In this document: piece by piece, positions 14,456-33,722 of the stretch | How positions within the stretch are numbered: position 1 is the first letter of the stretch | Layout: every line of letters begins with the position of its first letter | IMG/VR virus record: IMGVR_UViG_3300025121_000038 | Span: 1 to 64,000 of that record | Length of the DNA stretch: 64,000 nt | Source: a virus | Reading direction: 5' to 3' (one strand) | Program-made: the position numbers and the translations under genes | Notes under the pieces: generated by a model | The model's input: the letters and a program-made list of their open reading frames with translations, nothing else | Databases searched by the model: none | What the model was told of the DNA's origin: nothing

Positions 14456-14478
14456 TGGTGACGGACCCAGGACTTGAA
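14456..14478 (-). repeat. Displaced tRNA 3' end (TTCAAGTCCTGGGTCCGTCACCA), direct repeat of 15155..15174
   Basis: 19/20 identity with the 3' end of the tRNA at 15155; this copy carries CCA. Confidence 0.9.
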
Positions 14479-14507
14479 TTTTTCTTTTTATATTTGGTAC
14501 CTTTATC

Positions 14508-15173
14508 ATGATAAAATTATTTACAGAAGAAGAGTATAAGGCCGTTAAGTCTCGTCACACTTTACCCTTACAATGTATGAATTGTGGAACCATTTTTTAT
14601 AAAACTCGTATAGACATACATCTGGCAGAACTAGCTAAAAGAAATCAAAAATATGAATTTTGCAATAGATCTTGCAATAATAAGAAAAGATGTACCGTTT
14701 GTTGTAAACAATGTTTAAAAATATTTGAAAAAACTACGGGTGAAATGAAAAAGGGTTCCAATCATTTTTGTACTAAATCCTGTGCAGCAAAATACAACAA
14801 TGCTCATAAAACAAAGGGTACAAGAAGATCTAAACTTGAACAATGGTTAGAAATAAAATTACTTGAACTTTATCCAGACCTTGAGTTTCACTTTAACAAG
14901 ACAGACGCTATTAATGCTGAACTTGATATTTATATTCCAAGTCTTAAACTGGCTTTTGAATTAAACGGTATCTTTCATTATGAACCAATCTATGGTCAAG
15001 ATAAATTAGATAAAATTCAATCTAATGACCACAGAAAATTTCAAGCATGTATAGAACACAATATATCACTTTGTATTATAGATACAACATCACTCCTTCA
15101 TTTTAAAGAAAATAATGCGATAATATTTTTAAATATATTAACATCAATCCTTAATGACGGGCCCAGGACTTGA
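14508..15173 (+). CDS. Free-standing Zn-finger plus Vsr/DUF559-like endonuclease inserted at a tRNA T-loop
   Basis: CxxC clusters then ELDIYIPSLKLAFELNGIFHY; C-terminal half nearly identical to 32997..33710. Confidence 0.8.
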   Translation: MIKLFTEEEYKAVKSRHTLPLQCMNCGTIFYKTRIDIHLAELAKRNQKYEFCNRSCNNKKRCTVCCKQCLKIFEKTTGEMKKGSNHFCTKSCAAKYNNAHKTKGTRRSKLEQWLEIKLLELYPDLEFHFNKTDAINAELDIYIPSLKLAFELNGIFHYEPIYGQDKLDKIQSNDHRKFQACIEHNISLCIIDTTSLLHFKENNAIIFLNILTSILNDGPRT

Positions 15174-15233
15174 ACCTGGAAGCTCGTAAGCCACCCTGTT
15201 AGGGGTTGAGTTTACCAATTTCTCCAGCCCGCC
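15155..15233 (-). tRNA. tRNA-Leu-like with an aberrant 6-nt anticodon loop (CTAACA), no encoded CCA
   Basis: Cloverleaf GGCGGGC.../GCCCGTC-A, long variable arm, TTCAAGT T-loop. Confidence 0.65.
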
Positions 15234-15567
15234 GTATTTTAAAACATTTTTGGGACATATTCAGTGCGAACATGATTTCATATTTCGATATATACTTAGA
15301 TCAACCTTGGACAGTACAAAGGGTAAGGTCAACTTTATAGGACATAACCTCTTGTGCAGTTACCTTAGTCTCAGGGTAAAGTTTCCCTTCTCGGACATTT
15401 CGTTCTACAACTTCATCAATTTTTGCTTGCATTTGAGATTCTGAAAGACTTTCAAGATGAGCCTTTCTATAAATCTCATCTTTAATGGCTAGGGCTAACA
15501 GCTTAAAATTGAACATAATACCCTCAAGATTGTTGTTACTATACAAACGAAAAAGTCTAGATAATAT

Positions 15568-16827
15568 TCAGACGGAAAATTTAGTAGGAGCGAAACAGGA
15601 CAACATCTCTCGAAGGCTGTATTGTGTAGTGGGTCCGATAGCGATTGATTTGTTCTTATTATAGAACTCCATAAAGCTACTTACCACTTTGTTGAATTTG
15701 AATGCCTGAACATAGTTGGAGATTGTTTGTCTAAGATCTGTTAAGTCTAGTTCAACGAATCCTTCCTTAGAAGTCCATTCGTCAAATCTCTTAAAAAATC
15801 TTCGAATACCAACAATGTTGTTGTCGTTCCAGTCACCTCCATCAAAATAGTGGCCAAGGAACATAAGATAAAATCTAAGTTCGTCTGGATCATAGTCATC
15901 TGGGTTAACTACATTACCTTTGGATTTAGACATCTTCTCACCTTTGTAGGTGATCATACCTTGATGAATAAGTCTCTTGAAAGGCTCCTCTTCTTTTGCA
16001 ATGCCAAGGTCATACAGAAACATGTTTATAAACCTGGCGTAAATGAGATGCATACAAGCATGCTCATTACCACCTACATACAGGTCTACTTGCTGATATG
16101 CACCCTCAGATAGAAACTCTGTATCGGATCCTGTCAAGTATCTGAGATAATAGAAAGAACTGTCTACAAACGTGTCTAATGTATCCTCTTCACCTTCAAG
16201 AGGTATAGGGCACCCCCACTTACGTTGGCGTGAGACACACCAGTCATTAAGGTTCTCAAGCCAGTGACGCTGTTGCTTCTTGGTCTTTTCTGGGTAATCA
16301 ATCCAATCTAGATTTTTGATCAAACGGTCTTTGTAATCTGTGATCCTGAAGAACCATTGATTAAGCTCTCTACTCTCTATAATAGTAGAACAGCGCTCGC
16401 ATCGATCGTCTTTGACCTGTTCATTAGCAATAACAGTATTACACGATGGACAGAAATTAACTGGAGAGAATTTCTTGTAAGCTAGACCTTTCTCATGAAG
16501 TTTCAAGAACAGCCATTGAGTCCACTTATAATAAGACGGGTCTGAAGTTACAACTCTCTCTTCATATTGGGTATTCAGTCTAGTCATCTGTCTACGAAAA
16601 TTGTCTATATTCTCGTAAGTGACTTCTCTTGGGTCTCTGTTATGTTTAATCGCATAGTTCTCGGCCGGGAGGCCAAAAGCGTCATACCCAAAAGGTTGGA
16701 ATACTTCTACACCACGATATCTCTGCCATCGACAGTAACTATCCATAATGGCATAGTTATAGCAATGTCCTACATGGAGTCCGTCTCCTGACGGATAAGG
16801 AAACATTACCAGTACATACATAGTCAT
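15568..16827 (-). CDS. leuS: Minimal leucyl-tRNA synthetase (no CP1 editing domain, no C-terminal domain)
   Basis: MFPYPSG.GLHVGH, GYDAFGLPAENYA, DWCVSRQR.WG.PIP, DTLDTFVDSS, GG.EHA..HL.YARF, KMSKSKGN. Confidence 0.92.
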   Translation of the reverse strand: MTMYVLVMFPYPSGDGLHVGHCYNYAIMDSYCRWQRYRGVEVFQPFGYDAFGLPAENYAIKHNRDPREVTYENIDNFRRQMTRLNTQYEERVVTSDPSYYKWTQWLFLKLHEKGLAYKKFSPVNFCPSCNTVIANEQVKDDRCERCSTIIESRELNQWFFRITDYKDRLIKNLDWIDYPEKTKKQQRHWLENLNDWCVSRQRKWGCPIPLEGEEDTLDTFVDSSFYYLRYLTGSDTEFLSEGAYQQVDLYVGGNEHACMHLIYARFINMFLYDLGIAKEEEPFKRLIHQGMITYKGEKMSKSKGNVVNPDDYDPDELRFYLMFLGHYFDGGDWNDNNIVGIRRFFKRFDEWTSKEGFVELDLTDLRQTISNYVQAFKFNKVVSSFMEFYNKNKSIAIGPTTQYSLREMLSCFAPTKFSV

Positions 16828-17339
16828 TCCTCAAGTCGAATAAGCCACGGTTCTATATTTGGAGCCCAAACCTCTGATAGAGGTAAACTAAAGTCATTTG
16901 TTTCTCTATCAATACCGATAGGAACCACTTCGTCATTTACAGTTTGGTACTTTAAATGTAAAATTCCCAAATCTCGAAATAGCAATAAGAGGGTTCGACC
17001 AAGCTCTAATCTTTCTTGACCATCTATATCATTATTGAGACCGACTCCAAAGTCTCTCCAGAAAGACCCCATTTGGTCCAGCATGCTCCAACAAGATTTG
17101 AATACTTTAGGCTTTGCCCAATCTTCTGTGGATCTAATATTTCTAACACAATCTTCAGGCTTTTGAACATCGTACCGTTCTGCAAATCCATCTAAAATTG
17201 CGAGACATTTGTGGACATAATCTCTTTCTGGACTGATTTTGGCTTCTTTATACGGCAGAAGAGTCAAGTAATAGCTGGCTAGAAGGCCTTCAAACTCTTC
17301 ATATCGAAAGTCTGTATTAGGCATACATCCGGAATTCAT
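16824..17339 (-). CDS. Hypothetical protein, translationally coupled to leuS
   Basis: 171-aa ORF with ATGA overlap. Confidence 0.6.
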   Translation of the reverse strand: MNSGCMPNTDFRYEEFEGLLASYYLTLLPYKEAKISPERDYVHKCLAILDGFAERYDVQKPEDCVRNIRSTEDWAKPKVFKSCWSMLDQMGSFWRDFGVGLNNDIDGQERLELGRTLLLLFRDLGILHLKYQTVNDEVVPIGIDRETNDFSLPLSEVWAPNIEPWLIRLEE

Positions 17340-17629
17340 AGGTCCCTCTTACTCATAGATTACAGAAATAAATTTGACGTTATCATTTCTATGAACTTTT
17401 TTCCAAGCTTCTACTGCTTTGTAATGTTGATTTTTGTCTTCAAAACAATAACGTTCAAAGCGTTGTTCCCAATATCTATCCTCTTTCTGGAACCAGAACT
17501 TTACTACATAAGATTCCGACAATATGGGAGTATGTGTTTTATGTGTATGTTTCCGTTTCATACAATCTCTTATTCTGGTTTTTATATTAAGATATGACGA
17601 TAAAAGGATGGGATAAGTAAGAAACGAAA

Positions 17630-18007
17630 TTAAGTAAGAAGAGACCATTCACAAGGTATGACATTAAGATTGTAATCAATCCTGATAGGACGTATTAGGT
17701 CTCCATCATCCATTTCATTAGCAAGAGATCCGCAACCCCAAGCCTCTCCTGGTTTATCTCGTTTATAATAAACCATAGAGAGGAAATCATCCAATCGAGT
17801 CTCTATAAAAAACTGACCGTGACGAACGGATGGGGTTAATTTCATTAAGGAGGTAAATTCTTGTATTGGACCGAGACTTGTATATTCTTCTGATCCTTCG
17901 TCCCATTCAACTTTGGAATATACTTGCCAGTAATGAGGCCATTCGAGGTCTTCTACGTCAGGGAGAGTAGGTCTAAAAAAAGACATATCCATAAATATTG
18001 AACACAA
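17630..18007 (-). CDS. Hypothetical protein
   Basis: Acidic 125-aa ORF. Confidence 0.5.
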   Translation of the reverse strand: MCSIFMDMSFFRPTLPDVEDLEWPHYWQVYSKVEWDEGSEEYTSLGPIQEFTSLMKLTPSVRHGQFFIETRLDDFLSMVYYKRDKPGEAWGCGSLANEMDDGDLIRPIRIDYNLNVIPCEWSLLT

Positions 18008-18031
18008 AATATAGGATTATAAAAGGGAAGA

Positions 18032-18330
18032 GAAGTCAGGGGAGTTTGCAAGACTCCCAACATCCAACTTAGTAGAATATTTCAGTCACTCATATCAGAT
18101 TATATGTTTGCGCAAACATATAATCGTCATTTATGAGGAGAGCCTTTACCCTCAATGCAGCCGACCCATAGCCTAGTAACGACTGCATATCCGACCCGAT
18201 ATAACTGCTCTCATTAGCCTCGTACAATCGGTCTATCGGTACTTTATTCACCCAAGCCATCCGCACCCCTCTTTAAGAGCGAGAGGGTACATTTCCTCCG
18301 GAGTCAGAGGAACATTCTGTCACTGACTTC
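18032..18330 (-). ncRNA. Candidate structured ncRNA (about 300 nt) downstream of tRNA-Pro
   Basis: Closed by GAAGTCAG/CTGACTTC; internal hairpins and a 28-bp perfect palindrome; no ORF of 60 aa or more. Confidence 0.55.
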
Positions 18331-18334
18331 TCCA

Positions 18335-18412
18335 TGGTATGAGTGAGAGGAGTCGAACCTCCATGATGTCCTGTTTCCAAAACAGGCGACTTAGCCATTA
18401 GTCCACACCCAT
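18335..18412 (-). tRNA. tRNA-Pro(TGG)
   Basis: CCTGT-TTTGGAA-ACAGG arm, TTCGACT T-loop, CCA. Confidence 0.9.
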
Positions 18413-18489
18413 TGGTCGAGGCGAAAGGAATTGAACCTTCATGATGTCCTGCTTCCGACGCAGGCGACTTACCATTAGTCCACGCCTCG
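18413..18489 (-). tRNA. tRNA-Pro(CGG)
   Basis: CCTGC-GTCGGAA-GCAGG arm, CCA. Confidence 0.9.
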
Positions 18490-18509
18490 ATTTTTAGATA
18501 CTTAAAACA

Positions 18510-18585
18510 TGGTGGAGCTGGTCAGGGTCGAACTGACATCCTCTTGATTGCAGGTCAAGTGCTCACCCAATTGAGCTACAGCCCC
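18510..18585 (-). tRNA. tRNA-Ala(TGC)
   Basis: G3:U70, CTTGA-CCTGCAA-TCAAG, CCA. Confidence 0.9.
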
Positions 18586-18929
18586 AATTTATCAATACAT
18601 CACATACTCTTTAGTAGGGTCACCATTTGGGCGTCTACGTCCACTTTGGGGGTTACGCATCCATCCATCAGGCTCTCCTACCCCATCCCATGCTTCAAAA
18701 ACTGCGACCGCAGTCGAATATTCGTCGTATCACCAACTATCATCATAAAACATCTCGGAGCCTATGGCTATACGACCCCTTCCAAAAGTCAAAGGAAATA
18801 CAGATAAAACTTTCCCTGTAGTCAAAACTTTTTGTTTAACAGACATATAAGATCCATTGGTAAGGTCTTCAATAAATACTTATCCGTATAAACAAAGATC
18901 AGGTCAAAAAGTGCGAATGGAATATCTAA

Positions 18930-19454
18930 TCAGGCTAGAAAAATCTGAGCTATCTTGCGAAAATCTGAAAATGACATATGAACATCTTTGATGTCTGGTC
19001 CAGTCTTCTGTAATAGAGTAATTCTGTCGTCTTTTATCAATAAATCTAACGTGTTTGTAAGTTTAGTCTTATGACCTTTCTTCAATAAAGTAGCCACAGA
19101 GTCTAACTCTTGTTCTAATTTTGTTTTCTCTCCAATCAAAGATTCAGATAAAGCTAATGTTTTCATAAGATCCGAGAGTTCGAAATCTTCTATCTCTTCT
19201 GGTAAAAGAACTTTTAATTTGTCATTTATGGGTGTAGATGGAAATGCTACTTTAACAGGTGCTGTAAGATCGCCCTGAGTATATTTAAGTCGTTTACAAT
19301 TGTGGCGCTTTATAGTTTTAGAGTCCCACTCTACCGTTACACCATATGTATCAATACCTATCACCACACCTACAGCCCCCAGAGGGATACCGTATCTTCT
19401 CACAGAATCATTTAAAAGAACAAAATCACCAATCTTGAATTTGTGTATAGGCAT
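18930..19454 (-). CDS. Hypothetical protein, paralog of 7792..8310
   Basis: Shared motifs; GGAG RBS. Confidence 0.65.
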   Translation of the reverse strand: MPIHKFKIGDFVLLNDSVRRYGIPLGAVGVVIGIDTYGVTVEWDSKTIKRHNCKRLKYTQGDLTAPVKVAFPSTPINDKLKVLLPEEIEDFELSDLMKTLALSESLIGEKTKLEQELDSVATLLKKGHKTKLTNTLDLLIKDDRITLLQKTGPDIKDVHMSFSDFRKIAQIFLA

Positions 19455-19471
19455 CTAAAGACTCCGAAGTG

Positions 19472-19699
19472 TTAATTGCGATCGGGAACTAACTCATGAA
19501 CTATACCACGCCACCCACATGCACATACAGCTCTGTTGTTGTCTACTGCTGTCTGTAGATCTGTAAATATGACACCTTTACAAGTAGTTTCCACATCTTG
19601 AGACCCACATGTTGGACAACACCTATGTATATTGTGATATTGGGTATAAACAGACTCTCTAACAGTCGGCTCTGGTATTGAAGATATTAGTATAATCAT
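19472..19699 (-). CDS. Small Zn-ribbon protein whose ATG abuts a tRNA CCA
   Basis: CPTCGS...CACG; sequence reads CCA-ATG. Confidence 0.55.
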   Translation of the reverse strand: MIILISSIPEPTVRESVYTQYHNIHRCCPTCGSQDVETTCKGVIFTDLQTAVDNNRAVCACGWRGIVHELVPDRN

Positions 19700-19773
19700 T
19701 GGAGCGGAATAAGGAAATTGAATCCTTAACTACGGCTTGGGAAGACGTCGTGTTACCCTTACACTAATCCCGC
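19700..19773 (-). tRNA. tRNA-Gly(CCC)
   Basis: GCGGGAT/ATTCCGC-T-CCA, TTCCCAA loop. Confidence 0.85.
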
Positions 19774-19829
19774 ATATACTAGCATACTGAACAATATGAA
19801 GGTAAGCAAAATTTGAGATTTAGTCTAAA

Positions 19830-20090
19830 TTAATTTGACGGACCACATTCTAGTTCGTAGTCTATAATGGCTTGTTGTATTCTGGTGAGATTAACGAAAG
19901 AAATTCTACCCATTTGTTCAGAGGATAAAAAAGCAAAAGCTGTGTTAGCAAAACTAGGGGAGATATGTGTTACACACGTAAAATCTAAAATAATACTTTG
20001 GGATCCAGACAGGAACTTTTCTCTAAAGGTCTTACCGCCGTCTCTGCCCGACAGTCTAGATTTAAACTCAGAGGCAATGTCTATAAGCAA
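19830..20090 (-). CDS. STAS-like (DUF4325-type) protein
   Basis: L..R..G...R ... IILDF..V..ISPSFA..AF. Confidence 0.65.
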   Translation of the reverse strand: MLIDIASEFKSRLSGRDGGKTFREKFLSGSQSIILDFTCVTHISPSFANTAFAFLSSEQMGRISFVNLTRIQQAIIDYELECGPSN

Positions 20091-20373
20091 TTGTACACTC
20101 CACTTGTTGAGGGGTTAGAGAGCCTATACCTTTCCATCTTGCGGAATTGTCTTCAATTTCTATTAAACCGGAGTCTCTATACGAAGATAAAGTGTCGTAT
20201 AGTAGGTCTCCTAAAGTGTTGTTGGTCCAAAAGATATGTTTATTATCTCGAAACTCTTGAAATTTATCTTCCGAAGAACTAACACCTTGGAAAATACCTA
20301 GAGTAACTCCTAAATAATAAGCAGCTACATCAAGATCTGTCCAATCCGTAAGATATTCTTTAAGTCTTTTCAT
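20068..20373 (-). CDS. Hypothetical protein
   Basis: 101-aa ORF with ATGA overlap. Confidence 0.55.
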   Translation of the reverse strand: MKRLKEYLTDWTDLDVAAYYLGVTLGIFQGVSSSEDKFQEFRDNKHIFWTNNTLGDLLYDTLSSYRDSGLIEIEDNSARWKGIGSLTPQQVECTIAYRHCL

Positions 20374-22240: not shown

Positions 22241-22246
22241 ATATGA

Positions 22247-22328
22247 TTTTCTGAAAGGGATTCGAACCCCTAAGTCTTTCGACCGGACCTTTTATGGGCC
22301 CTTTGTTTACCAATTTCATCATCAGAAA
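22247..22328 (-). tRNA. Atypical tRNA-Leu-like (TAA, A33), no CCA
   Basis: AAATTGGTAAA D-loop, GGGCC-CATAAAA-GGTCC, GTCGAAAGAC variable arm, TTCGAAT. Confidence 0.55.
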
Positions 22329-22332
22329 ATTG

Positions 22333-22418
22333 CGCCTTGGAGAGGGGTTTTAACCCTCACGCCACGTCTGGCAGAGTATTTATAGTACTCCACGTCTGTC
22401 TTTTCCGTCATCCAAGAC
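22333..22418 (-). tRNA. Atypical class II tRNA-like gene with ATA anticodon
   Basis: GTCTTGGA/TCCAAGGC stem, GAGTA-CTATAAA-TACTC, long variable arm, degenerate D and T loops. Confidence 0.45.
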
Positions 22419-23026: not shown

Positions 23027-24047
23027 TTAAGAGCGTTTCTTAAGTTTTCTATAATCTAAACCGTAATCAAAAGCCCATTTTCTGATCGCATTATCTGAAA
23101 CACCGTATTTTAACCCAAGTGCGGGTATAGTATTAAATTTTATATCTTGTTCGAGTACTTTTTGATGGTCTTCCACATCTTCTACGACTTTTTGAAAAAC
23201 ATTCTTGAGAACATGTTTTCATAGTGGGTCTTACTTTTAAGACCTGTTTTCCACAAATACATACAAAATATATTTTAGGTTTCAAGTCAACATCTTTCTT
23301 TTCTTGAAGAGATTTTGCTTGAAAAGCATCATATATTATATCGAATTTTTCTGAACATAAATCTTGGAATTCTTCTATGTTTTGAGTATTACTCAATTGA
23401 GTAAGTTGTTTGTACCTAACAAACAAGAGTTTTATATCATTAGATGATAATATCCTTTGTAATTTGTCTAAATCATACGCGGAGAAAAATCCCTTTACTT
23501 CTACATACAAATCATAATTAGGCAAATAAAAATCGGGAGCATATGTTTTTAATACATCGCTTGATGAAAGGTACTTTAGGTATACTTTTCTAATCCATAA
23601 TATACCTTTAGAGTTAAACCATTCTGCTACTTTTACTTCCCAGGTTCCTCTACATACATATTCTTCTCCTTGTATGTTTTTAATAGTGTACCACTTCACA
23701 TCTTTAAATCCACCTCCACCTTTTTCTTCCAAAAATTTAGATCTTGCTGCGGATATTTTCTCTTTAGCTTCTTTCGACATTATCTTTGTAGGTTGTAGTT
23801 TAGCTTTTTCTGATCTTTTAGCTTTAATAGAAGCAAGATTGGGGTTTAGAGAGCATTTTAAAGTATGTGCCCCCAACCGGACCCAGTCAAAAGATTGATG
23901 GCAAAATTTACACGAATAAATATTCGAAAGCTGTGCTAGAAATACTTCTCTATGAATGGTTTTGGATTTTTGTGAGTGAGAATTATTATGGCCGCCTAAT
24001 TGGGCCACCGTATCAAAAGTTTTATCGCATTTTGAACATTTATACAT
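23027..24047 (-). CDS. Zn-finger plus PD-(D/E)XK endonuclease with a frameshifted C-terminal HTH
   Basis: C2H2 finger, YAPDFYLP...VEVKG; after the A5 run at 23159-23163 the +1 frame gives ...LGLKYGVSDNAIRKW...KRS*. Confidence 0.75.
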
Positions 24048-24685: not shown

Positions 24686-24757
24686 TGGTAGGAGAGCAGG
24701 GAATCGGACCCTGTAAACATCCTTATAAGAGACGCGTCTGCAACCAGCAACTCTCCC
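24686..24757 (-). tRNA. Atypical tRNA-Ile(TAT)
   Basis: GGGAGAG/CTCTCCT-A-CCA, CTTATAA loop, compact D-arm, TCCGATT T-loop. Confidence 0.65.
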
Positions 24758-25196: not shown

Positions 25197-25235
25197 TGGC
25201 GGTCCCAGAGAGAATCGAACTCTCGTTTTTTCACG
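25197..25235 (-). pseudogene. 3' half of a split tRNA-Asp-type gene
   Basis: CGTGA-AAAAAC-GAGAG-TTCGATT-CTCTC-TGGGACC-G-CCA. Confidence 0.85.
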
Positions 25236-25303
25236 TTTTATTAATGTTATATAACAAGCAAATTTGACTTCATTTAAAATAAATCGTACATTCATGGATA
25301 AAC

Positions 25304-26155
25304 ATGCAAAAACAATATATTAAGAGTAGGCGTAAAGATCAAAAAAGAGAGATGCTAACCTACAAAGGTGGATCATGTCAATTATGTAATTACGCGATAT
25401 GTGCTAGAGCAATGGATTTTCATCACAAAGACCCTACTCAAAAAGACTTCGGAATATGTGGTATGAATAAATCTTGGGAAGAAATTAAGACAGAATTAGA
25501 CAAATGTATTTTAGTCTGTAAAAACTGTCACGGAGAAATACACGATGGCCTTCACGACCAATTTAAAATACTCAATGTAAAAGTGCGCTCAAACTATGCT
25601 AATAGAATATATTATTATCGAAAACAATTCAAACACAATTTAGTCCAATACGCGGGTGGGTATTGTGCTATTTGTACTTACAAAAAGAGTTACAGATGTT
25701 TATCTTTTCACCATTTGAACAAATCAACAAAAACATTTGAAATAAATGAAGCTACTCAGAAAACTTTGGAAGAGATAGCAGTAGAACTTGATAAATGTAT
25801 TTTATTATGTCTAAACTGTCACTCTGAGGTACATGACGAAATTTCTGACATAAGCGATGTTAAACCAATAAAAAATCTTGAATATCTCGATATCATAAAA
25901 TCTCTCATTCAAAAAGATGAAAAACCATTAATAATAGAAAAATATTATTGTTTAGATTGTAATGTGGAAAAGAAAACATCCGCCGCAAGATGTGTTCCTT
26001 GCAGTCAAAAATACCAAGAGAAAGTGAAATGGCCAGAAATAGAAGAATTGATAGAAATGTTAAAAACAAGTAATAAAGTGTTATTGGCTAAACAACTCGG
26101 TGTTTCAGAAGCTGCTATACGGAAAAGGTTGTCAAAATATATGTTCAATACATGA
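25304..26155 (+). CDS. Double-HNH endonuclease with C-terminal HTH, inserted in a tRNA anticodon loop
   Basis: Two GGxCxxCxY...FHH...ELDKC.L.C.NCH.E.H units; KWP...AKQLGVSEAAIRKRL. Confidence 0.85.
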   Translation: MQKQYIKSRRKDQKREMLTYKGGSCQLCNYAICARAMDFHHKDPTQKDFGICGMNKSWEEIKTELDKCILVCKNCHGEIHDGLHDQFKILNVKVRSNYANRIYYYRKQFKHNLVQYAGGYCAICTYKKSYRCLSFHHLNKSTKTFEINEATQKTLEEIAVELDKCILLCLNCHSEVHDEISDISDVKPIKNLEYLDIIKSLIQKDEKPLIIEKYYCLDCNVEKKTSAARCVPCSQKYQEKVKWPEIEELIEMLKTSNKVLLAKQLGVSEAAIRKRLSKYMFNT

Positions 26156-26181
26156 CGTACTAACCACTGTACGATGGAACC
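26151..26181 (-). pseudogene. 5' half of a split tRNA-Asp-type gene
   Basis: GGTTCCA-TC-GTAC-AGTGGTTA-GTAC-G-TCATG; pairs with the 3' half at 25197. Confidence 0.85.
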
Positions 26182-26185
26182 CTTT

Positions 26186-27406: not shown

Positions 27407-27495
27407 TGGCGGAGAGTTGGGGAATTGAACCCCAGAACGGGTATTAGCCGCCAGCCGCCTTCCAAGCGGGTTCCTCGACCAACCGGACACTCTCC
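27407..27495 (-). tRNA. tRNA-Ser(GGA)
   Basis: CCGC-TTGGAAG-GCGG, long variable arm, GCCA. Confidence 0.85.
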
Positions 27496-27687: not shown

Positions 27688-27689
27688 AT

Positions 27690-27763: not shown

Positions 27764-27847
27764 AATCGATTCGAACCCCGACCAAACATCAAAATTTAAT
27801 CTTTTTATACTTCTCTTGATTAGACTAAATAATTGACGAGAAGTTAA

Positions 27848-28588
27848 ATGCACATAACAAAAAATTTTTCTGAAGAAGGATTTGTTAAAAATATTAAATG
27901 TTCTGACTCGGACTTCATAATTGCTGTAAATAAAACCATAAGTATCGCAGAATTACTAAGATACTTAAACATACCTCAACATAGGGGCAGGCATTATGAG
28001 TCTGTTAAATTTAAAATAAAACAATTAAAATTAGACACATCTCATTGGGGTCCTTATGTTAAACGTAATGGTCATAAAAGAAAAGATTTAAAAGACATTC
28101 TTACAATAGGCACTTCCATATGTCATTTAAAAAGATTATTAGATGAAAATGTCTTAAAAAATGAATGTTATGAGTGTGGCCTAATACCCTATTGGAAAGA
28201 AAAACCTCTTAAATTACAAATTGACCATATCAATGGTATAAATACAGACAATAGACTTGAAAATCTAAGACTATTGTGTCCCAATTGTCACTCTCAAACA
28301 GACACGTTTTGTGGTAGAAATGTAACAAAACGACATAAAAAGCCAACTTGCATAGATTGCAATACACAAATAAGCAGGAAATCTTTAAGGTGTACTATTT
28401 GTCAAGCAAAAATTAATAAAGTTACTACAAAAATTACATGGCCAGAAACAAGAGATCTTATAAAGATGATAGAAAATAGTTCTGTATTGGCCACTTCAAG
28501 AAATTTAAAGTGTTCTGATGCAGCCGTATATAAACACTTAGAATCAAGAGGGTTTGTAGTAAAAAACAAAAAAGTTTATAAAGACTGA
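27848..28588 (+). CDS. HNH endonuclease with C-terminal HTH
   Basis: CYECG...LQIDHINGINTDNRLENLRLLCPNCHSQT; stop codon lies in a tRNA-Gly 5' half. Confidence 0.88.
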   Translation: MHITKNFSEEGFVKNIKCSDSDFIIAVNKTISIAELLRYLNIPQHRGRHYESVKFKIKQLKLDTSHWGPYVKRNGHKRKDLKDILTIGTSICHLKRLLDENVLKNECYECGLIPYWKEKPLKLQIDHINGINTDNRLENLRLLCPNCHSQTDTFCGRNVTKRHKKPTCIDCNTQISRKSLRCTICQAKINKVTTKITWPETRDLIKMIENSSVLATSRNLKCSDAAVYKHLESRGFVVKNKKVYKD

Positions 28589-28613
28589 CACACTACCATT
28601 GTGTTATACCCGC
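28581..28613 (-). pseudogene. Orphan 5' half of tRNA-Gly, cut at the anticodon loop
   Basis: GCGGGTA-TA-ACAC-AATGGTA-GTGT-G-TCAGT-CTT. Confidence 0.8.
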
Positions 28614-28619
28614 ATAAAT

Positions 28620-28739
28620 TTTATCAGAGCGTAGGTCGAATTCCACTCCACCGTGTCCAGGTCTTTACCCTATTGGACCCTGTCTGCGAATGCCCGGTTC
28701 GACTCACGCATCCACCTTCACAGATTACGGTATGATAAA
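28620..28739 (-). ncRNA. Candidate pseudoknotted small RNA
   Basis: TTTATCA/TGATAAA, ACCGT/ACGGT, TCTGTGAA/TTCGCAGA, GTCCA/TGGAC, and crossing GTCGAA/TTCGAC. Confidence 0.55.
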
Positions 28740-28744
28740 ATTGT

Positions 28745-28818
28745 TGGCGGTCCCAAGGGGAATCGAACCCCTACAGTCTCGTAGACAGCGAGACATACTG
28801 CCGTTATATTATGGAACC
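28745..28818 (-). tRNA. tRNA-Asp(GTC)
   Basis: TCTCG-CTGTCTA-CGAGA, GCCA. Confidence 0.9.
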
Positions 28819-28822
28819 AAAT

Positions 28823-29267
28823 GCTACTTAAGCGTGCTTTTACGCCAAAGACCTCAAAGGGTTGATTAGGAAGTCCCAGAAATACCCCTATCCTATTACC
28901 TGTATTTCTAGTCAGACCCTCAGTTCCTCTGGTACTGTGAGGGCAATTCCTAACCCGCTACTGCTATGTTTTACAGATCTTTACCTTACGAGGGGAACTT
29001 CAGCTATTGCTAACTTACTAAACCTCCGACAAAGATCCATAACCCATCATTCACACGCCCATTCGTAGTTTAATCTTACATATTCCGGAGCACATAGAGT
29101 ATATGTTAAGGTCTTAAACCTTCAAACCTCTATGAGGGTCTCCCCGCTTATTAATTCGGATCAACAACCAAGTAAGATATCTTGATTTCGGATGCGCTTT
29201 CCTACTTTCTTCTACATTTCGGTCACTCATTAAGGGTGGACGCTTCTAATCCTACCTCTTAAGTAGC
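28823..29267 (-). ncRNA. Candidate large structured ncRNA (445 nt) between two tRNA-Asp genes
   Basis: Closed by a perfect 10-bp GCTACTTAAG/CTTAAGTAGC; starts exactly after CCA; no minus-strand ORF of 60 aa or more. Confidence 0.6.
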
Positions 29268-29341
29268 TGGCGGTCCCGAAGGGAGTCGAACCCTCAAATC
29301 TTGATAGACAATCAAGCATTTTACCGTTAAATTACGGGACC
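29268..29341 (-). tRNA. tRNA-Asp(GTC)
   Basis: CTTGA-TTGTCTA-TCAAG, GCCA. Confidence 0.9.
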
Positions 29342-29489
29342 GTTACCTGTGTAATATGCTCCTCAGGCCGGAGTTTTAAGGTTTAGATAGAGCTCCAAAG
29401 CTCTAGTTTCTTAACAGATTGAAGGTTTGGAGTCCCTCGTGTGTTAATTGACTAAAGGATCTGTCCTTGCGGTACAGTACCCTATCTAA

Positions 29490-29564
29490 TGGTGGTCTCG
29501 GAGAGGATCGAACTCTCTTCTCCAGGTTGAAAGCCAAGCGTCTTAGCCAATGGACCACGAGACC
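29490..29564 (-). tRNA. tRNA-Glu(TTC)
   Basis: CTTTCAA loop, GGTCTCG/CGAGACC-A-CCA. Confidence 0.88.
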
Positions 29565-29773
29565 AAAATTGTAAACTCACAAACAGATAATCGCATTCCC
29601 AAATGCGCGCTCTTGTAATGTAAAGAGGGGTCTTGTTCTCTTTACTTTTCGTTTACTCACTTATAACGTTCTTAAGTTGCACAAAGTTAGATGTTATTTT
29701 AAAATAAAGCGGAACAGGTGGTGCGACCCACACTCGGATCCTAGTTCACTTCGCGCTAGCTGTGACTGTCCGC

Positions 29774-29848
29774 TGGCTGGGGTAATAGGATTCGAACCTA
29801 TAATAAGAGATTCAGAGTCTCCTGGTTTGCCAATTAGCCTATACCCCA
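29774..29848 (-). tRNA. tRNA-Gln(CTG)
   Basis: GGAGA-CTCTGAA-TCTCT, TGGGGTA/TACCCCA-G-CCA. Confidence 0.9.
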
Positions 29849-29854
29849 ATTATC

Positions 29855-30214
29855 TTATGCTATAAGATGTTTACGCATCTTATCATATTCAAGGTTTAGA
29901 TACTCTATGTGTTTCTTTAGTCTTTCACAATTTTCCTCTACTAAAGAATTATAATGTCTTACACATTCTTCTTTATTGTCAAATATACATATAAATTCTG
30001 GAAATCTAGTATTATCCCACATGGGAATCTTCTTTCCAGATTTAGTTTTAATCTCTTTCAAATTTGGTTGATAAATTTGCGGCACGACAAGACATGTTAC
30101 TTCTGTAGGTTTTACATGTCTTGTCGGAGTATATTTACGTACATCAGAAAATCTATAATCACATACCCAATATGTCATACCTTCTTGAAGGGTAGTGTCT
30201 GATAAAATTTTCAA
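29855..30214 (-). CDS. Hypothetical protein (start uncertain)
   Basis: ORF between tRNAs; the called 5' part overlaps a tRNA remnant. Confidence 0.55.
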   Translation of the reverse strand: MKILSDTTLQEGMTYWVCDYRFSDVRKYTPTRHVKPTEVTCLVVPQIYQPNLKEIKTKSGKKIPMWDNTRFPEFICIFDNKEECVRHYNSLVEENCERLKKHIEYLNLEYDKMRKHLIA

Positions 30215-30232
30215 AATAATTCCTATAAATGT

Positions 30233-30301
30233 TGGATGGGGAGGAAGGATTTGAACCTTCAACCTCTTGGTGCTGAGTCTGATGTAGTGCCACTTCTGCT
30301 A
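30233..30301 (-). pseudogene. 5'-truncated tRNA remnant downstream of an HNH gene
   Basis: D-arm, T-arm GAAGG-TTCAAAT-CCTTC and CCA present; 5' acceptor strand replaced by the ORF end; anticodon stem unpaired. Confidence 0.7.
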
Positions 30302-30976
30302 TAATTTAAACAGATGTTTTCTTATAGCCGCCTCAGAAACCCCTAATCTTTTGGCAACCGTAGTTCTATTTGTTAATTTTATTTCTTCCAATAAATCTAT
30401 ATCAGATGGCCAAATTATTTTCTTTTTCTTAGGGAGACTGTTAAAACACTTTTTGCATGTTGAAGCATTCAACGTTATTGTCTTTTGACAATGTGGACAC
30501 TTATTACCAACAAAATCTGTCTTTTTCTTATTACGACCAGCAAAAGTAGGAGTTTGACTATGACAATTTGGACACAACAATCTTAAATTTTCTAACCTAT
30601 TGTCGGTATTAACCCCATTGATATGGTCAAGATGTAAAACCAAGGGTTCACCTTGCCAGATTGAACTTACCCCGCATTTCTCACACTTCTCTTGTATTAT
30701 ATTATCTCGTATCAATTTTGTTTTCAAATCACGAGGTCTAAAGTTGGAATTGTCCCGTAATGGTTCTAATTTTAGACTTTTTCTATCATTAGGTTTCTTC
30801 AAGTCTGAAAGAGACAGGTTTTCTTCAGCCATTCTATTTTTTAATGTCTGACAATTTCCACCGGCTTGTTGCAGACCATAATGTGCTAGAATTTCAGTTA
30901 AAGTCTCACAACTTAAAACAATGTTTTTAAAATTCTCAGAAGAATCTTTCCAAATTGGACTTCGTCGTTTATTCAT
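30299..30976 (-). CDS. HNH endonuclease with C-terminal HTH
   Basis: LHLDHINGVNTDNRLENLRLLCPNCHSQT; AKRLGVSEAAIRKHL; ATG directly follows a tRNA CCA. Confidence 0.88.
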   Translation of the reverse strand: MNKRRSPIWKDSSENFKNIVLSCETLTEILAHYGLQQAGGNCQTLKNRMAEENLSLSDLKKPNDRKSLKLEPLRDNSNFRPRDLKTKLIRDNIIQEKCEKCGVSSIWQGEPLVLHLDHINGVNTDNRLENLRLLCPNCHSQTPTFAGRNKKKTDFVGNKCPHCQKTITLNASTCKKCFNSLPKKKKIIWPSDIDLLEEIKLTNRTTVAKRLGVSEAAIRKHLFKL

Positions 30977-31056
30977 TGGCAGACGTGGTAGGATTCGAAC
31001 CTACATAAATGACCTGGGTTCAAAGCCCAGCGCAACGCCAATTTTGCTACACGTCT
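30977..31056 (-). tRNA. tRNA-Gln(TTG)
   Basis: CTGGG-CTTTGAA-CCCAG, GCCA. Confidence 0.88.
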
Positions 31057-31254
31057 AAAACCTTTTAAAATTACTTCAAACCTGAAATTGTGCTACTCCC
31101 CAATTATGTTGAGGTCACCTAATTTTCATGTTTGATACACCTCAAGGTCTCAAACACTAGATGGTTTCGTTATCCATCTCCATATTTGCCTTCATGTTCT
31201 CCAAAACACATCTCACATATCATTTTTTACCTTTAATTTCTTCCAAATCTTTAG

Positions 31255-31338
31255 TGGCTGTGGAGAGACTCGAACTCTCACATCCTTTCGGACCCTGGTT
31301 CTGAGCCAGGTGCGTCATACCAATTGCGCTACACAGCC
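31255..31338 (-). tRNA. tRNA-Leu(CAG), long variable arm
   Basis: CCTGG-CTCAGAA-CCAGG, GTCCGAAAGGAT arm, A73; ends CTA. Confidence 0.9.
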
Positions 31339-31342
31339 AAAT

Positions 31343-31368
31343 TGCCTCTACCGTTGGGCTACACCGGC
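31343..31368 (-). pseudogene. Orphan 5' fragment of a tRNA-Leu
   Basis: GCCGGTG-TA-GCCC-AACGGTA-GAGGC-A; D-arm like the tRNA at 33947. Confidence 0.65.
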
Positions 31369-31569
31369 ATTTTTCAAAATAACAAATTACAAATGGTTTG
31401 AAACACTAACAAAGCCATCAAATCATAAGTAACAACGTTAACAAAGACTCCATTCAAAAGTAGGTTCTCAAATGCTTCTTTTATTTTGGTCGTTTCGTTA
31501 TATAACCTTAGTTTAAGGGTTCAAGTTGATAACGAAATCTGTTTCAAGTATCTAAGATATAAAGTTTAT

Positions 31570-31646
31570 TGGTCGGAACGGCGGGATTTGAACCCACGAC
31601 CCCTACCACCCCAAGGTAGTGCTCTACCAAGCTGAGCCACGTTCCG
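31570..31646 (-). tRNA. tRNA-Pro(GGG)
   Basis: CTACC-TTGGGGT-GGTAG, CCA. Confidence 0.92.
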
Positions 31647-31722
31647 TGGTCTAGGTGACTGGATTCGAACCAGCGTGAACCTGCTTCCAACGCAGGTAGG
31701 TCAACCACTGCCTTACACCTAG
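31647..31722 (-). tRNA. tRNA-Pro(TGG)
   Basis: CCTGC-GTTGGAA-GCAGG, CCA. Confidence 0.88.
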
Positions 31723-31725
31723 ATA

Positions 31726-31929
31726 CTAATCTGTAACAGTCGAATCAATCTCGATGCGGTAATCTCCGCCGTCATAAAGATCATAGCCGAAACATTGAAA
31801 CTGCTTATAATCGATATCAAGGCTAACCTTGGAGAGATCTACATCATCCCCGTACTTGGCCTTAATTGCGTCAATAAGGTCCTGAGCGGTAACCTGGATC
31901 GAACTGCCACACATCAAAAGAGCATCCAT
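31726..31929 (-). CDS. Small acidic hypothetical protein
   Basis: AAGGA RBS, promoter motif at 31969. Confidence 0.6.
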   Translation of the reverse strand: MDALLMCGSSIQVTAQDLIDAIKAKYGDDVDLSKVSLDIDYKQFQCFGYDLYDGGDYRIEIDSTVTD

Positions 31930-32012
31930 GATAAAGTTCCTTTTTGGTTTTAAGGTTTGTTTATCGTAAACGTTCTTTCCTACAAAGAAATCAGATAAGT
32001 TCTGAAATAAAT

Positions 32013-32086
32013 TGGAGCGGATGGAGAGAATCGAACTCTCACCTTCTGCATGGCAAGCAGATACACTACCATTGTGTTACACCCGC
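32013..32086 (-). tRNA. tRNA-Gly(GCC)
   Basis: TCTGC-TTGCCAT-GCAGA, TCCA. Confidence 0.9.
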
Positions 32087-32160
32087 AAATGTGAGATGGT
32101 TACAACCAACGGCAGTGAGCTGTAGCAACGACGGGCCTACTAATTATCCGTCTCATCTCA

Positions 32161-32235
32161 TGGTCAGGGTGGCTGGGATCGAACCAGCGACCGCCTGCTT
32201 CCAAGGCAGGAAAGCTACCACTGCTCTACACCCTG
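32161..32235 (-). tRNA. tRNA-Pro(TGG)
   Basis: CCTGC-CTTGGAA-GCAGG, CCA. Confidence 0.9.
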
Positions 32236-32425
32236 ATTGCGGACACCGTGAAAACGATGTCTGAACTCCTTGTACACATGGTACATGAGCTAAAGCTTAT
32301 TATCAATCACTAATAGAAGCCATCTGTCAAGGTTTTCACAATTGAATAGATTTAGATCCTATTAGCTGAGCTAGTTGCATCCCTTATGTCCCTTAATGGG
32401 ACTCTGGTTAGCAAATAATAAGCTA

Positions 32426-32512
32426 TGGTAGCTGTGGTCGGATTCGAACCGACACGTCCATTACAGACACGGATTTTGAGTCCGCTTCGTCATGCCAATT
32501 GCGTACACAGCC
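32426..32512 (-). tRNA. tRNA-Leu(CAA), long variable arm
   Basis: GCGGA-CTCAAAA-TCCGT, long arm, ACCA. Confidence 0.88.
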
Positions 32513-32710
32513 ACAAAATTAATTGTCGAGTTTACCTTTACATCAAATCCGGTGCCACCGTAGGTTTCCCGGTTTGGTACTGGAACCACAAGAGGATTGG
32601 TTACCCCTACTTTTTCGGCTTAGTGCCTATGCCTCTAGTTGGGCTATGTGGTTTAAAATGAGGTGCAAGTTGTTAACATTTTATTCTGTCCATACACCTG
32701 TGTTTTAATA

Positions 32711-32790
32711 TGGTGGAGCACCTGGGATTTGAACCCAGCTAAATATCCGAATTGCAAGTCCGGCGACCACCCCTAGCAGTCTCGTGCCCC
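32711..32790 (-). tRNA. tRNA-Ala(TGC)
   Basis: G3:U70, CCGGA-CTTGCAA-TTCGG, CCA. Confidence 0.88.
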
Positions 32791-32812
32791 ATAAATATGT
32801 TTCTACCAAAAC

Positions 32813-32889
32813 TGGTGGCCGTGAGAAGATTTGAACTTCCACTGAACAGGCTCTCAACCTGCTTCCTCTGCCAGTTGGGATACACGGCC
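32813..32889 (-). tRNA. tRNA-Leu(GAG), short variable loop
   Basis: GCAGG-TTGAGAG-CCTGT, 5-nt variable loop TCAGT, ACCA. Confidence 0.88.
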
Positions 32890-32942
32890 AATTTGAGTGT
32901 GATGTTCACACTCGTTTCTATATTCAATTGTCAAAGATCTAA

Positions 32943-32965
32943 TGGGGTGCTATGAGAGAGTTGAA
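32943..32965 (-). repeat. Displaced tRNA-His 3' end with CCA; 21-bp direct repeat of 33650..33670
   Basis: gggtgctatgagagagttgaa is identical at both sites. Confidence 0.92.
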
Positions 32966-32996
32966 AACTAATTTTCTCTTTATAACTTACCCATTT

Positions 32997-33710
32997 ATGA
33001 TAAAAAAATTTACATATGACCAATATAACCAAGCTAAAAGTCTAGATAATCTATTACTAGAATGTCTATTTTGTAAACAAGATTTTCTATGTACAAAACG
33101 AAATATTAAGCATGCATTACTCAACTCAACAAAAGACAAACGAAAATTCTGTACATTAAAATGTAGCAAAGAATATTTAAAGTCACTAAACTTCATTATT
33201 TGTTCTTATTGTAACAATAAATCACATAGACAAAAAGCTCTTATAAATGTTGGCAATAATTTTTGTACTCAATCATGTGCGGCAAAATACAATAATGCAC
33301 ATAAAACAAAAGGTACTAGAAGATCCAAACTTGAACAATGGTTAGAAATAAAATTACTTGAACTTTATCCAGACTTAGAATTTCACTTCAATAAAACAGA
33401 TGCTATAAATGCTGAGCTTGACATATACATACCAAGTCTTAAACTGGCTTTTGAGCTAAATGGTATCTTTCATTATGAACCAATCTATGGTCAAGATAAA
33501 TTAGATAAAATTCAATCTAATGATCACAGAAAATTTCAAGCATGTATAGAACATGACATATCCCTTTGTATTATTGATACATCAAATCAACTTTATTTCA
33601 AAGAACAAACATCTAAAAAATATTTAGACATTATAACTAATATAATTGAGGGTGCTATGAGAGAGTTGAACTCTCGTATTCGGATCCACAAACCGACGTT
33701 CTACCGTTGA
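32997..33710 (+). CDS. Free-standing Zn-finger plus Vsr/DUF559-like endonuclease inserted at the tRNA-His T-loop
   Basis: Start MIKKFT parallels MIKLFT of 14508; near-identical nuclease half; C-terminus reads antisense through tRNA-His. Confidence 0.8.
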   Translation: MIKKFTYDQYNQAKSLDNLLLECLFCKQDFLCTKRNIKHALLNSTKDKRKFCTLKCSKEYLKSLNFIICSYCNNKSHRQKALINVGNNFCTQSCAAKYNNAHKTKGTRRSKLEQWLEIKLLELYPDLEFHFNKTDAINAELDIYIPSLKLAFELNGIFHYEPIYGQDKLDKIQSNDHRKFQACIEHDISLCIIDTSNQLYFKEQTSKKYLDIITNIIEGAMRELNSRIRIHKPTFYR

Positions 33711-33722
33711 ACTAATAACACC
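33651..33722 (-). tRNA. tRNA-His(GTG)
   Basis: G-1:C73, TTGTGGA loop; CCA not encoded. Confidence 0.9.

Follow-up and report, generated by a model that had tools for sequence, protein, structure and literature searches.

Two nuclease genes lodged at tRNA 3′ ends

How can a gene come to lie between the discriminator base (N73) of a tRNA gene and its CCA end, with a second copy of the tRNA's own 3′ part on its far side? This question is raised by two small elements, named here W1 and W2, in a 64,000-nucleotide stretch of viral DNA (positions 1-64,000 of the 80,998-base IMG/VR record IMGVR_UViG_3300025121_000038; hereafter the window). In the answer favored here, with belief and doubt about evenly balanced, they would be homing-type single-gene elements that insert directly after the discriminator and duplicate 20 bp of their target. 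The record is rated 35% complete by CheckV, so that the window represents a fragment of a huge phage. Its GC content ranges from 34 to 43%, and the public sequencing runs containing it are groundwater metagenomes. ARAGORN finds 34 tRNA genes in it, without exception on the minus strand. CCA is encoded by 26 of the 34, and the two CCA-less hosts of the elements are therefore exceptions. The open reading frames (ORFs) of W1 and W2 are on the plus strand, antisense to the array, and each abuts the discriminator of its CCA-less tRNA.

W1 occupies positions 14479-15154. A leader of 29 nucleotides (nt) on the plus strand (14479-14507), possibly a promoter, separates the displaced tRNA fragment from the start codon of P0001 (14508-15173, plus strand), which encodes 221 amino acids (aa) with two treble-clef zinc fingers and a Vsr-like nuclease domain. 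The last six codons of P0001 and its TGA stop are antisense tRNA, the stop falling inside the T-loop. The host is a CCA-less tRNA-like gene of type II (15155-15233, minus strand) with a Leu-like body and a 6-nt anticodon loop, whose positions 54-73 correspond to 15155-15174. The displaced 3′ fragment (14456-14478, minus strand) carries positions 54-73 again (14459-14478), followed by CCA (14456-14458, TGG on the plus strand). W2 (32966-33650) is built in the same way, with a 31-nt leader (32966-32996, plus strand) and an ORF of the same architecture, P0002 (32997-33710, plus strand, 237 aa), whose start at 32997, rather than at the upstream ATG at 32952, is supported by the family. The final 20 or so codons of P0002 are antisense tRNA-His; they are unconserved junk, and the predicted local distance difference test (pLDDT) is below 50 for residues 231-237. 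The host is a CCA-less tRNA-His(GUG) (33651-33721, minus strand; 62.2 bits with the Rfam tRNA model), with positions 54-73 at 33651-33670 and G-1 encoded at 33722. The displaced tRNA-His fragment (32943-32965, minus strand) consists of positions 54-73 (32946-32965) and CCA (32943-32945, TGG on the plus strand).

Thus, each element starts directly after N73, and on its far side come the second copy of 54-73, the old CCA of the tRNA and the downstream flank. As the old CCA lies with the far-side copy, the complete tRNA has lost its encoded CCA; the letters that follow the complete tRNAs are TTA and CTC instead. The direct repeats (14459-14478 and 15155-15174 for W1, 32945-32965 and 33650-33670 for W2) match at 19 of 20 and 21 of 21 positions, scores reached by one and none, respectively, of 200 random 310-nt windows. 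On the tRNA strand, both run from T54 of the T-loop (TTCAA) through N73, the 21st base of the His repeat being a chance match at position 74. In the whole-window scan, the only stray tRNA tails were the W1 and W2 copies, plus two other tRNA pieces. A first-pass annotation, made from the letters of the window, had described these repeats, the CCA on the displaced copies with CCA-less intact tRNAs and the lack of a recombinase, and it is borne out in each respect. Neither Phage_integrase (PF00589) nor Resolvase (PF00239) has a match in the 80,998-base record, itself 35% complete, and Pfam and PHROG searches found no recombinase domain in P0001 or P0002.

Relatives and their tRNA neighbors

Of 4700 candidates from a word-index protein search, 4625 pass at E ≤ 0.001, and many of these are on contigs of at least 300 kb. 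In IMG/VR, 264 viral-contig stretches encode relatives. Seventy-nine fetched loci, nine earlier ones and the two window copies made up a set of 90 viral loci, reduced to 73 distinct ones by dropping L016 and L082, whose start codon was not found by the script, and by collapsing 15 loci with identical ORF DNA. In 43 of the 73 loci, the conserved end of the family ORF has a convergent tRNA 3′ end between -90 and +130 nt from it; among 154 other ORFs (150 aa or longer) of these loci, 8 have one. The view first proposed for the window pair, of small discrete units that belong to one family and are associated with tRNA 3′ ends, is thereby supported. Neighboring tRNAs are mostly antisense to the family ORF (330, versus 38 in sense). 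The offsets between ORF end and tRNA are bimodal, from -7 to +28 in 21 loci (the tight, window-like arrangement) and from +57 to +104 in 22 others. Among the 30 loci with no called tRNA, several have a T-arm and an acceptor strand at this place, as judged by eye or by relaxed ARAGORN, and many family proteins terminate in peptides translated from an antisense T-arm.

A genome collection holding one genome per species of bacteria and archaea provided 28 further loci, mostly on phage-like contigs of metagenome-assembled genomes, with the same tRNA adjacency in most of them. A short form of the protein, matching residues 67-223 with a single finger group, occurs in the long tRNA arrays of filamentous cyanobacteria, antisense and 8-11 nt from a CCA-less tRNA-His. 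These loci (L105-L121) belong to contigs of Microcoleus, Nostoc, Tolypothrix, Kamptonema, Microseira and Phormidium; no repeat remnant was found at them. Searches of phage records gave no match with blastn; with tblastn, matches covering 25% of the protein came from four SPbeta-like staphylococcal phages and from nothing else. A quick protein tree is star-like, with many hosts. Considering these data, it is an evenly poised proposition that W1 and W2 belong to a large unnamed family of selfish elements, about 0.7 kb long and with a single gene, residing at tRNA 3′ ends in huge-phage arrays.

The duplication of tRNA positions 54-73

Tabulating the flanking repeats and target tRNAs of homologs, a check suggested in the first-pass annotation, revealed that homologs do carry the 54-73 duplication. 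Repeats running from discriminator to T-loop occur at 10 of the 73 viral loci and at 4 of the 28 from the genome collection; their hosts are nine named tRNA isotypes and the Leu-like gene. They usually measure 20 nt (19-23 nt across the 14 loci). Besides the window copies at Leu-like (19/20) and His (21/21) hosts, perfect 20/20 repeats are found at tRNA-Met in L028, L035 and L089, at tRNA-Gly in L046 and at tRNA-Ile in L052, and imperfect ones at tRNA-Arg in L049 (19/21), tRNA-Thr in L054 (15/20) and tRNA-Gln in L011 (17/19). In the genome collection, the repeats are at tRNA-Ser in L097 (20/20) and L119 (21/21), at tRNA-Met in L098 (19/20) and at tRNA-Gln in L094 (19/23, with CCA in both copies). 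Shorter remnants are seen in L022, L031, L021, L025 and L014.

The repeat extends to the T-loop in 17 loci, and in every one of them its inner edge is exactly 53|54. After the displaced copy comes CCA in W1, W2, L046, L097 and L098, and CAA in five others. The left ends of the elements begin right after the T-loop GAA, usually with AA and a common A/T-rich motif. This motif, seen in unrelated family members, reads AA, a few bases, a ATTTTCGA-like stretch and then TATTTA (for instance L014:2476-2500, L021:2453-2480 and window 32966-32990); it may be a promoter or a terminal recognition site of the element. The right end is either the first base of a ribozyme (see below) or the ORF tail. In L005, the nuclease ORF is preceded by two partial copies of the tRNA-Gln 3′ end (2605-2620 and 2852-2870) that enclose a small minus-strand ORF, which suggests nested or repeated insertions.

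A Vsr-like nuclease

P0001 and P0002 are 63% identical overall. The near-identical core and divergent N-termini noticed at the outset are confirmed by the alignment: 2 of 99 residues differ between positions 87 and 185, versus 58 of 83 aligned residues in the N-terminal region. Pfam recognizes only a weak zf-FCS finger (E 9.8e-5 and 0.034), with no NUMOD or helix-turn-helix repeat in the N-terminal part. PHROG matches are to 'homing endonuclease' families 9084 and 3339 and also to 'HNH endonuclease' families, and a profile search against PDB sequences returned only zinc fingers (MYM-type) and spurious repeats. A 36-member family alignment displays eight invariant cysteines in two finger-like groups with CxxC...C...C spacing, an almost invariant block, ELDIYIPSLKLAFELNGIFHYEPIYG, and the invariant residues D142, E153, N155, G156, H159 and D176.

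An AlphaFold2 model (pLDDT 83) was compared with known structures. VIA-align places Vsr (1cw0_A) first, with a Z score of 10.2 (root mean square deviation 3.6, 126 residues aligned), followed by the catalytic domain of I-Bth0305I (3r3p_A, Z 10.1, deviation 2.8, 97 aligned), NGO0050 (3hrl, Z 9.8) and 1vsr (Z 9.7); the best-scoring unrelated structure reaches Z 8.3. Foldseek gives probabilities of 0.98-1.0 for the Vsr-type matches. As judged from the predicted model, the C-terminal domain is a nuclease of the Vsr-like PD-(D/E)xK fold, and the label 'Vsr-like' given in the first-pass annotation holds at the level of the fold.

HDV-like ribozymes in relatives

In the group with offsets of +57 to +104, the spacer between tRNA and ORF is a conserved structured RNA on the tRNA strand. 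In L046, it has a sub-threshold match (33 bits, E 0.018) to the Rfam hepatitis delta virus (HDV) ribozyme family, RF02682. A covariance model built from 17 spacers, R1, was run on 86 sources and gave 26 matches, 22 of them distinct. When an HDV-like double pseudoknot is written in, 88.6% of the cells are paired and 24 of 26 pairs have changed on both sides, a result reached by none of 500 shuffles; helices P2 and P1.1, which lie outside the R1 model, are paired in 97.4% and 90.7%. Covariation support extends to P1, P2, P3, P1.1 and P4. The first base of the ribozyme, usually a G in a G-U pair, is directly 3′ of the discriminator. Such a ribozyme stands between tRNA and ORF in 19 of the 73 loci, and two more variants are recognizable by eye. 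On the minus strand, it directly follows N73 of a CCA-less tRNA at L028:3013-3094, L035:3117-3197, L046:3148-3225 and 20 further loci. In the window, R1 has no match at E ≤ 0.1, and an Rfam scan at E ≤ 0.5 detected no HDV family.

To judge from sequence and predicted pairing, this RNA belongs to the theta ribozymes described by Kienbeck et al. (2024; PMC10879173); published theta ribozymes number 1753 unique ones. In that work, cleavage sites of theta ribozymes were located at phage tRNA 3′ ends, the main hosts were Met, suppressor (Sup) and Leu tRNAs, and only 4.5% of the associated tRNAs encoded CCA (PMC10879173). Its main text makes no mention of an endonuclease, of homing or of a duplication, and no paper tying the present nuclease family to tRNA duplications or to theta ribozymes was found. 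As far as these searches show, the full form of the element would be the first link between a known ribozyme class and a mobile gene. Seven of the viral loci scanned with R1 have both repeat and ribozyme (L028, L035, L046, L052, L089, L049 and L054). In these seven, R1 has no match beside the displaced copy, which indicates that the ribozyme arrived there with the element. The idea that the ribozyme was native to the tRNA, the nuclease gene having landed behind it, is rejected for these loci on the same grounds; a native ribozyme is possible at loci that have the ribozyme only. At L192:6806-6940, a ribozyme follows a tRNA-Pro with no nuclease ORF, and next to it come letters resembling an antisense ORF tail and the left-end motif. 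On this resemblance, L192 could be the footprint of the loss of a nuclease gene.

Models for insertion

Considering this anatomy, the following mechanism may be envisaged. The nuclease would recognize the tRNA gene as DNA, through the T-arm, the acceptor strand and position 74, and would cut one strand near 53|54 and the other near 73|74, at a distance of about 20 bp. Recombination-dependent repair would then copy the element from an occupied allele. If both 20-nt single strands were kept or filled, a target-site duplication of fixed length would result, as well as a whole tRNA, whatever its sequence. The displaced fragment would be a dead, decaying remnant. In many relatives, self-cleavage of the theta ribozyme, whose first base comes right after N73, would release a CCA-less tRNA; the hosts of W1 and W2, devoid of the ribozyme, would depend on cellular 3′ processing and CCA addition. 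The domain of the CCA-adding enzyme (PF01743) has no match in the 81-kb record, which is uninformative in a record that is 35% complete. A retro route through RNA, suggested by the CCA of the displaced copy, was dropped since 26 of the 34 array tRNAs encode CCA and no reverse transcriptase is present.

A broader proposal can be formulated more tentatively, doubt here being somewhat stronger than belief. The nuclease gene would insert between the discriminator and the CCA of any tRNA with the 20-bp duplication of 54-73, the tRNA being kept usable, in the full form by means of the ribozyme. These elements would constitute an undescribed class of mobile element, and many theta ribozymes and CCA-less tRNAs of phage arrays would be their footprints. 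tRNAs with a ribozyme only would have lost the nuclease gene, and the window copies would have lost the ribozyme.

A second model deserves to be considered, although its probability is clearly lower. In this model, a replacement end is carried along. A single break would occur in the T-loop, near 53|54, and a unit made of tRNA positions 54-73, the ribozyme where present and the nuclease gene would be copied from an occupied orthologous tRNA. The 54-76 end of the recipient would escape resection and be left as the displaced fragment. The two repeat copies would then stem from two genomes and not from a staggered cut. In fungal mitochondria, free-standing endonuclease genes are known to bring a new gene 3′ end and to leave the old one behind. 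The constant inner edge, at 53|54 in 17 of 17 loci, is as expected of a cut site, and the small differences within repeat pairs (W1, 19/20; L049, 19/21; L011, 17/19; L054, 15/20) would also be accounted for. The N-terminus of the tRNA-Met members is conserved beyond expectation (see below), which fits lineages staying at one tRNA, and W1 and W2 are not recent copies, so they do not exemplify a jump from one tRNA to another. An ordinary break would suffice, like that made by I-Bth0305I, a characterized Vsr-like homing enzyme that leaves 2-base 5′ overhangs (PMC3239194). However, on entering a new tRNA species, a carried end would create a chimeric acceptor stem, whereas the repeats match their own tRNA, nine of them perfectly. 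Moreover, the left end abuts the displaced copy at one conserved position in unrelated lineages, as a defined terminus would. Finally, an occupied tRNA has a complete T-arm, so that self-immunity would still require recognition beyond position 73. A true target-site duplication is favored because the whole tRNA has been restored at nine named isotypes and the Leu-like host, with nine perfect repeats, and because the ends are fixed.

Several observations weigh against the target-site duplication model and its extension. An empty allele was not found in seven pattern scans, and mobility is read from the anatomy. Two probes joining the displaced copy to the next tRNA letters had no match, nor had the His 21-mer in viral and metagenome contigs or the W1 20-mer in metagenome contigs; the tRNA bodies of L035 and L005 retrieved only the known occupied contigs among viral contigs. 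Sequencing runs of groundwater metagenomes were also compared, in the form of contigs. Runs X1, X3 and X5 have occupied sites, their contigs spanning the left junctions and breaking inside the repeated core. In run X7, which contains a relative about 90% alike, 14200-15527 and 33456-34100 are without cover, and a 761-nt contig aligns only as far as 32965, where the displaced His fragment ends; 19 letters of the contig lie beyond this point, and it is not readable as an empty site. As to the duplication, its outer edge is not fixed, since the L094 repeat contains CCA in both copies. In addition, 58 of the 73 viral loci have no clear repeat or remnant, as expected if remnants decay but equally if insertion occurs without duplication. 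To our knowledge, a 20-bp stagger would be unprecedented for a Vsr-like fold. The sequence link to Vsr is itself non-significant (hhalign to E. coli Vsr, E 0.33), even if D142 falls on the catalytic aspartate of the Vsr PDF motif. No transposase (DDE, HUH, serine or tyrosine) accompanies the Vsr-like protein, the sole product of the element; terminal inverted repeats were not systematically searched. The W1 host is abnormal, which weakens the retention of a functional tRNA there: it has a 6-nt anticodon loop, ARAGORN labels it '???', and the Rfam tRNA model gives it 33.7 bits (gathering threshold 29) when the stretch is searched alone but does not report it in the whole-window scan. As to the ribozyme, members that bear it and tight members are intermixed on the quick protein tree. 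A nuclease-independent pattern applied to 78 loci gave eight R1-confirmed ribozymes, six of them, including the one of L192, with no family ORF in the fetched locus; the two with a family ORF beside them are on contigs already in the set.

It is much less probable that the nuclease gene is a non-mobile resident, serving the maintenance of the array, the exclusion of co-infecting phages or segmental amplification as with SegB of T4/T6, with repeats produced by local recombination between tRNA genes. Roles of the SegB type in array inheritance and amplification have been published (PMC2330249; PMC13096335), the seven scans gave no presence/absence polymorphism, and the cyanobacterial copies keep one conserved place beside tRNA-His where repeats were not found. 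Nevertheless, local recombination hardly explains fixed 54-73 repeats at unrelated tRNAs flanking a unit with conserved ends, the antisense orientation of 330 of 368 neighboring tRNAs, ORF tails entering tRNAs as junk, and a star-like tree with many hosts.

The near-identical cores

The first-pass annotation had interpreted the two elements as one family recently retargeted to two different tRNAs, possibly through its variable N-terminus. This part of the interpretation is not sustained, although the N-terminus may still contribute to the choice of target. To compare the segments of the proteins, the rank of each window copy as partner of the other was computed among 68 family members. In the core, W1 and W2 are mutual best matches (98% identity, versus 80% for the next). 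In the N-terminal 86 residues, the ranks drop to 34th and 25th, at an identity of about 28% against a family median of 30%, and in the C-tail they are 6th and 53rd. The number of synonymous substitutions per site (dS) is 0.59 in the core, versus 1.1-1.8 in the flanks; even the common core is therefore not recent. With a non-synonymous rate (dN) of 0.013, the core is under strong purifying selection, and dN/dS is about 0.73 in the N-terminal part. Outside the 99-codon core, the two copies are no closer than random members, which points to two lineages with a homogenized core. From these sequence comparisons, the simplest reading is that the core became near-identical by gene conversion between two resident, otherwise unrelated copies. 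P0003, a database protein from a 29.5-kb contig, 91% identical to P0002, joins the N-terminus and core of W2 to the tail of W1. It is either a recombinant of the two copies or an assembly chimera, and its junction could be one that forms when the 18.5-kb array segment is tandemly duplicated or circularized.

A recent duplication of one element, followed by retargeting between tRNAs through divergence of the N-terminal fingers, is accordingly improbable. It can invoke the 98% identical core, the pairing of W1 and W2 on the whole-protein tree (98% in the Shimodaira-Hasegawa-like approximate likelihood ratio test), the N-terminal dN/dS and some correlation between N-terminus and target within the family. 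Indeed, among 42 members with a called tRNA, pairs sharing an anticodon have N-termini more alike than their cores predict (residual +0.071 versus -0.004), a signal reached by none of 2000 label permutations. It comes mainly from the tRNA-Met group, is confounded by kinship and is absent from the His, Gly, Glu and Leu pairs. W2 and the His-associated L076 have only 25% N-terminal identity. With N-terminus and tail at the level of random family pairs, a higher dS in the flanks than in the core and the chimeric P0003, retargeting cannot readily be reconciled.

Least probable of all is a small integrative element mobilized in trans by a recombinase of the tyrosine or serine type, with the repeats as attL and attR and a crossover in the T-loop: the repeat from T-loop to 3′ end equals that of tRNA-integrating islands and a recombinase could lie outside a record that is 35% complete, but integrase or resolvase domains are lacking in the 81-kb record and in the element ORFs, the sole gene encodes a conserved nuclease and is under purifying selection, each of the nine named isotypes and the Leu-like host would require an attP matching its repeat, and in ribozyme-bearing members the repeat stops exactly at N73.

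Other features of the array

Besides those of W1 and W2, the array contains other nuclease genes, including three HNH genes. The first HNH ORF (25304-26155, plus strand) is located within a tRNA-Asp-like gene of the minus strand (25197-26183). This gene lacks an anticodon arm and is represented by a 3′ portion with CCA (25197-25227) and a 5′ portion (26157-26183). Run X7 contains a contig that has an intact tRNA-Asp and can be aligned with each of the two portions (25 nt on a side), but this tRNA may be that of another organism. More generally, the joints seen in X7 across HNH genes rest on 25-34 nt per side, 88% alike, and may correspond to tRNAs of other organisms. A second HNH ORF (30299-30976, minus strand) begins directly after the CCA of a tRNA-Gln(UUG), the whole feature spanning 30299-31056. 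The third is at 27848-28588, and an endonuclease I-like gene with a C2H2 finger is at 23133-24047. An ORF of 229 aa (34129-34818, minus strand) with no Pfam or PHROG match begins directly after the CCA of tRNA-Glu (34819-34892). Just past it, at 34100-34128, there is a T-arm and acceptor fragment with a terminal CCA, which comes from another tRNA since it differs from this tRNA-Glu.

A tRNA with anticodon UUA, of the ochre suppressor type (62628-62702, 57 bits with Rfam), ends in CC, the final A being missing. When the whole window is scanned with the Rfam tRNA model, several ARAGORN tRNAs have no match at E ≤ 0.5, namely Leu-UAA, Tyr-AUA, Ile-UAU, an 80-nt Ala and Ser-GGA (coordinates within this group are 22245-22418, 24686-24757, 32711-32790 and 27407-27495). 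They may be degenerate or unusual.

Significance and comparison with known systems

If insertion with duplication of the tRNA end is confirmed, it would represent a third route, besides introns and inteins, by which a homing-type nuclease gene can invade an essential gene without inactivating it. The end of the gene would be duplicated and, in the full form, the transcript would be cut free by the ribozyme, which would thus play the part that a self-splicing intron or intein plays in classical homing elements. This would offer an origin for theta ribozymes and for the rarity of encoded CCA beside them, left open in the main text of PMC10879173. The tRNA arrays of huge phages and of cyanobacteria would have been shaped by nuclease genes whose targets are the tRNA genes within them. 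Enzymology would gain a new kind of nuclease, one that reads tRNA genes at positions defined by structure and possibly makes cuts 20 bp apart. In annotation, a 20-nt fragment of a tRNA tail, an ORF entering a tRNA and a CCA-less tRNA in a phage array become readable as one feature.

The closest known systems are compared here in turn. With EDxHD or Vsr-like homing endonucleases (I-Bth0305I, phage Hef-type), the family shares the C-terminal Vsr-like fold (Z 10.1 to 3r3p_A). It also shares the combination of an N-terminal DNA-binding module with a C-terminal catalytic domain, and phage-borne, free-standing members exist in that group (PMC3239194). However, the family has two zinc fingers (zf-FCS-like) in place of NUMOD or helix-turn-helix modules, neither intron nor intein is involved, the target is the end of a tRNA gene and a 20-nt duplication flanks the insertion. 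As in the theta ribozyme-tRNA units, 19 of 73 relatives have a double pseudoknot right after the discriminator of a CCA-less tRNA (PMC10879173). In contrast to these units as presented in the main text of that article, the ribozyme of the family is one end of a nuclease-gene insertion that displaces the old tRNA 3′ end.

SegB of phage T4 cuts within tRNA genes and drives the inheritance of the region (PMC2330249), and HNH genes are linked to cyanobacterial tRNA arrays (PMC8421152). The nuclease gene studied here likewise resides inside a tRNA array, but it differs by its fold, its fixed position after N73, its antisense orientation, the 54-73 duplication and the optional ribozyme. The resemblance to islands and prophages integrated at tRNA genes by tyrosine integrases had led the first-pass annotation to recognize an attL/attR geometry. 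The comparison is right insofar as the insert is flanked by repeats from T-loop to 3′ end, of which the displaced copy is the downstream one; it fails in that the insert is 0.7 kb long with a single nuclease gene, no integrase or other recombinase was found and the repeat excludes CCA.

R2 retrotransposons offer an analogy only. They too insert site-specifically in a structural RNA gene and combine zinc fingers with a restriction-like endonuclease (RLE), and R2 RLE chains appear among the weak Foldseek rows for the model. In R2, an HDV-like ribozyme at the junction of host RNA and element processes the co-transcript (PMC11331408). Unlike R2, the family has no reverse transcriptase, its ORF is antisense to the co-transcript and its ribozyme frees the host tRNA instead of the element RNA. 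With DNA transposons and insertion sequences, it shares a fixed-length duplication at different targets (14 loci), the one in L094 extending to CCA. The tRNA-end geometry is best seen as a variant of the homing-type nuclease elements.

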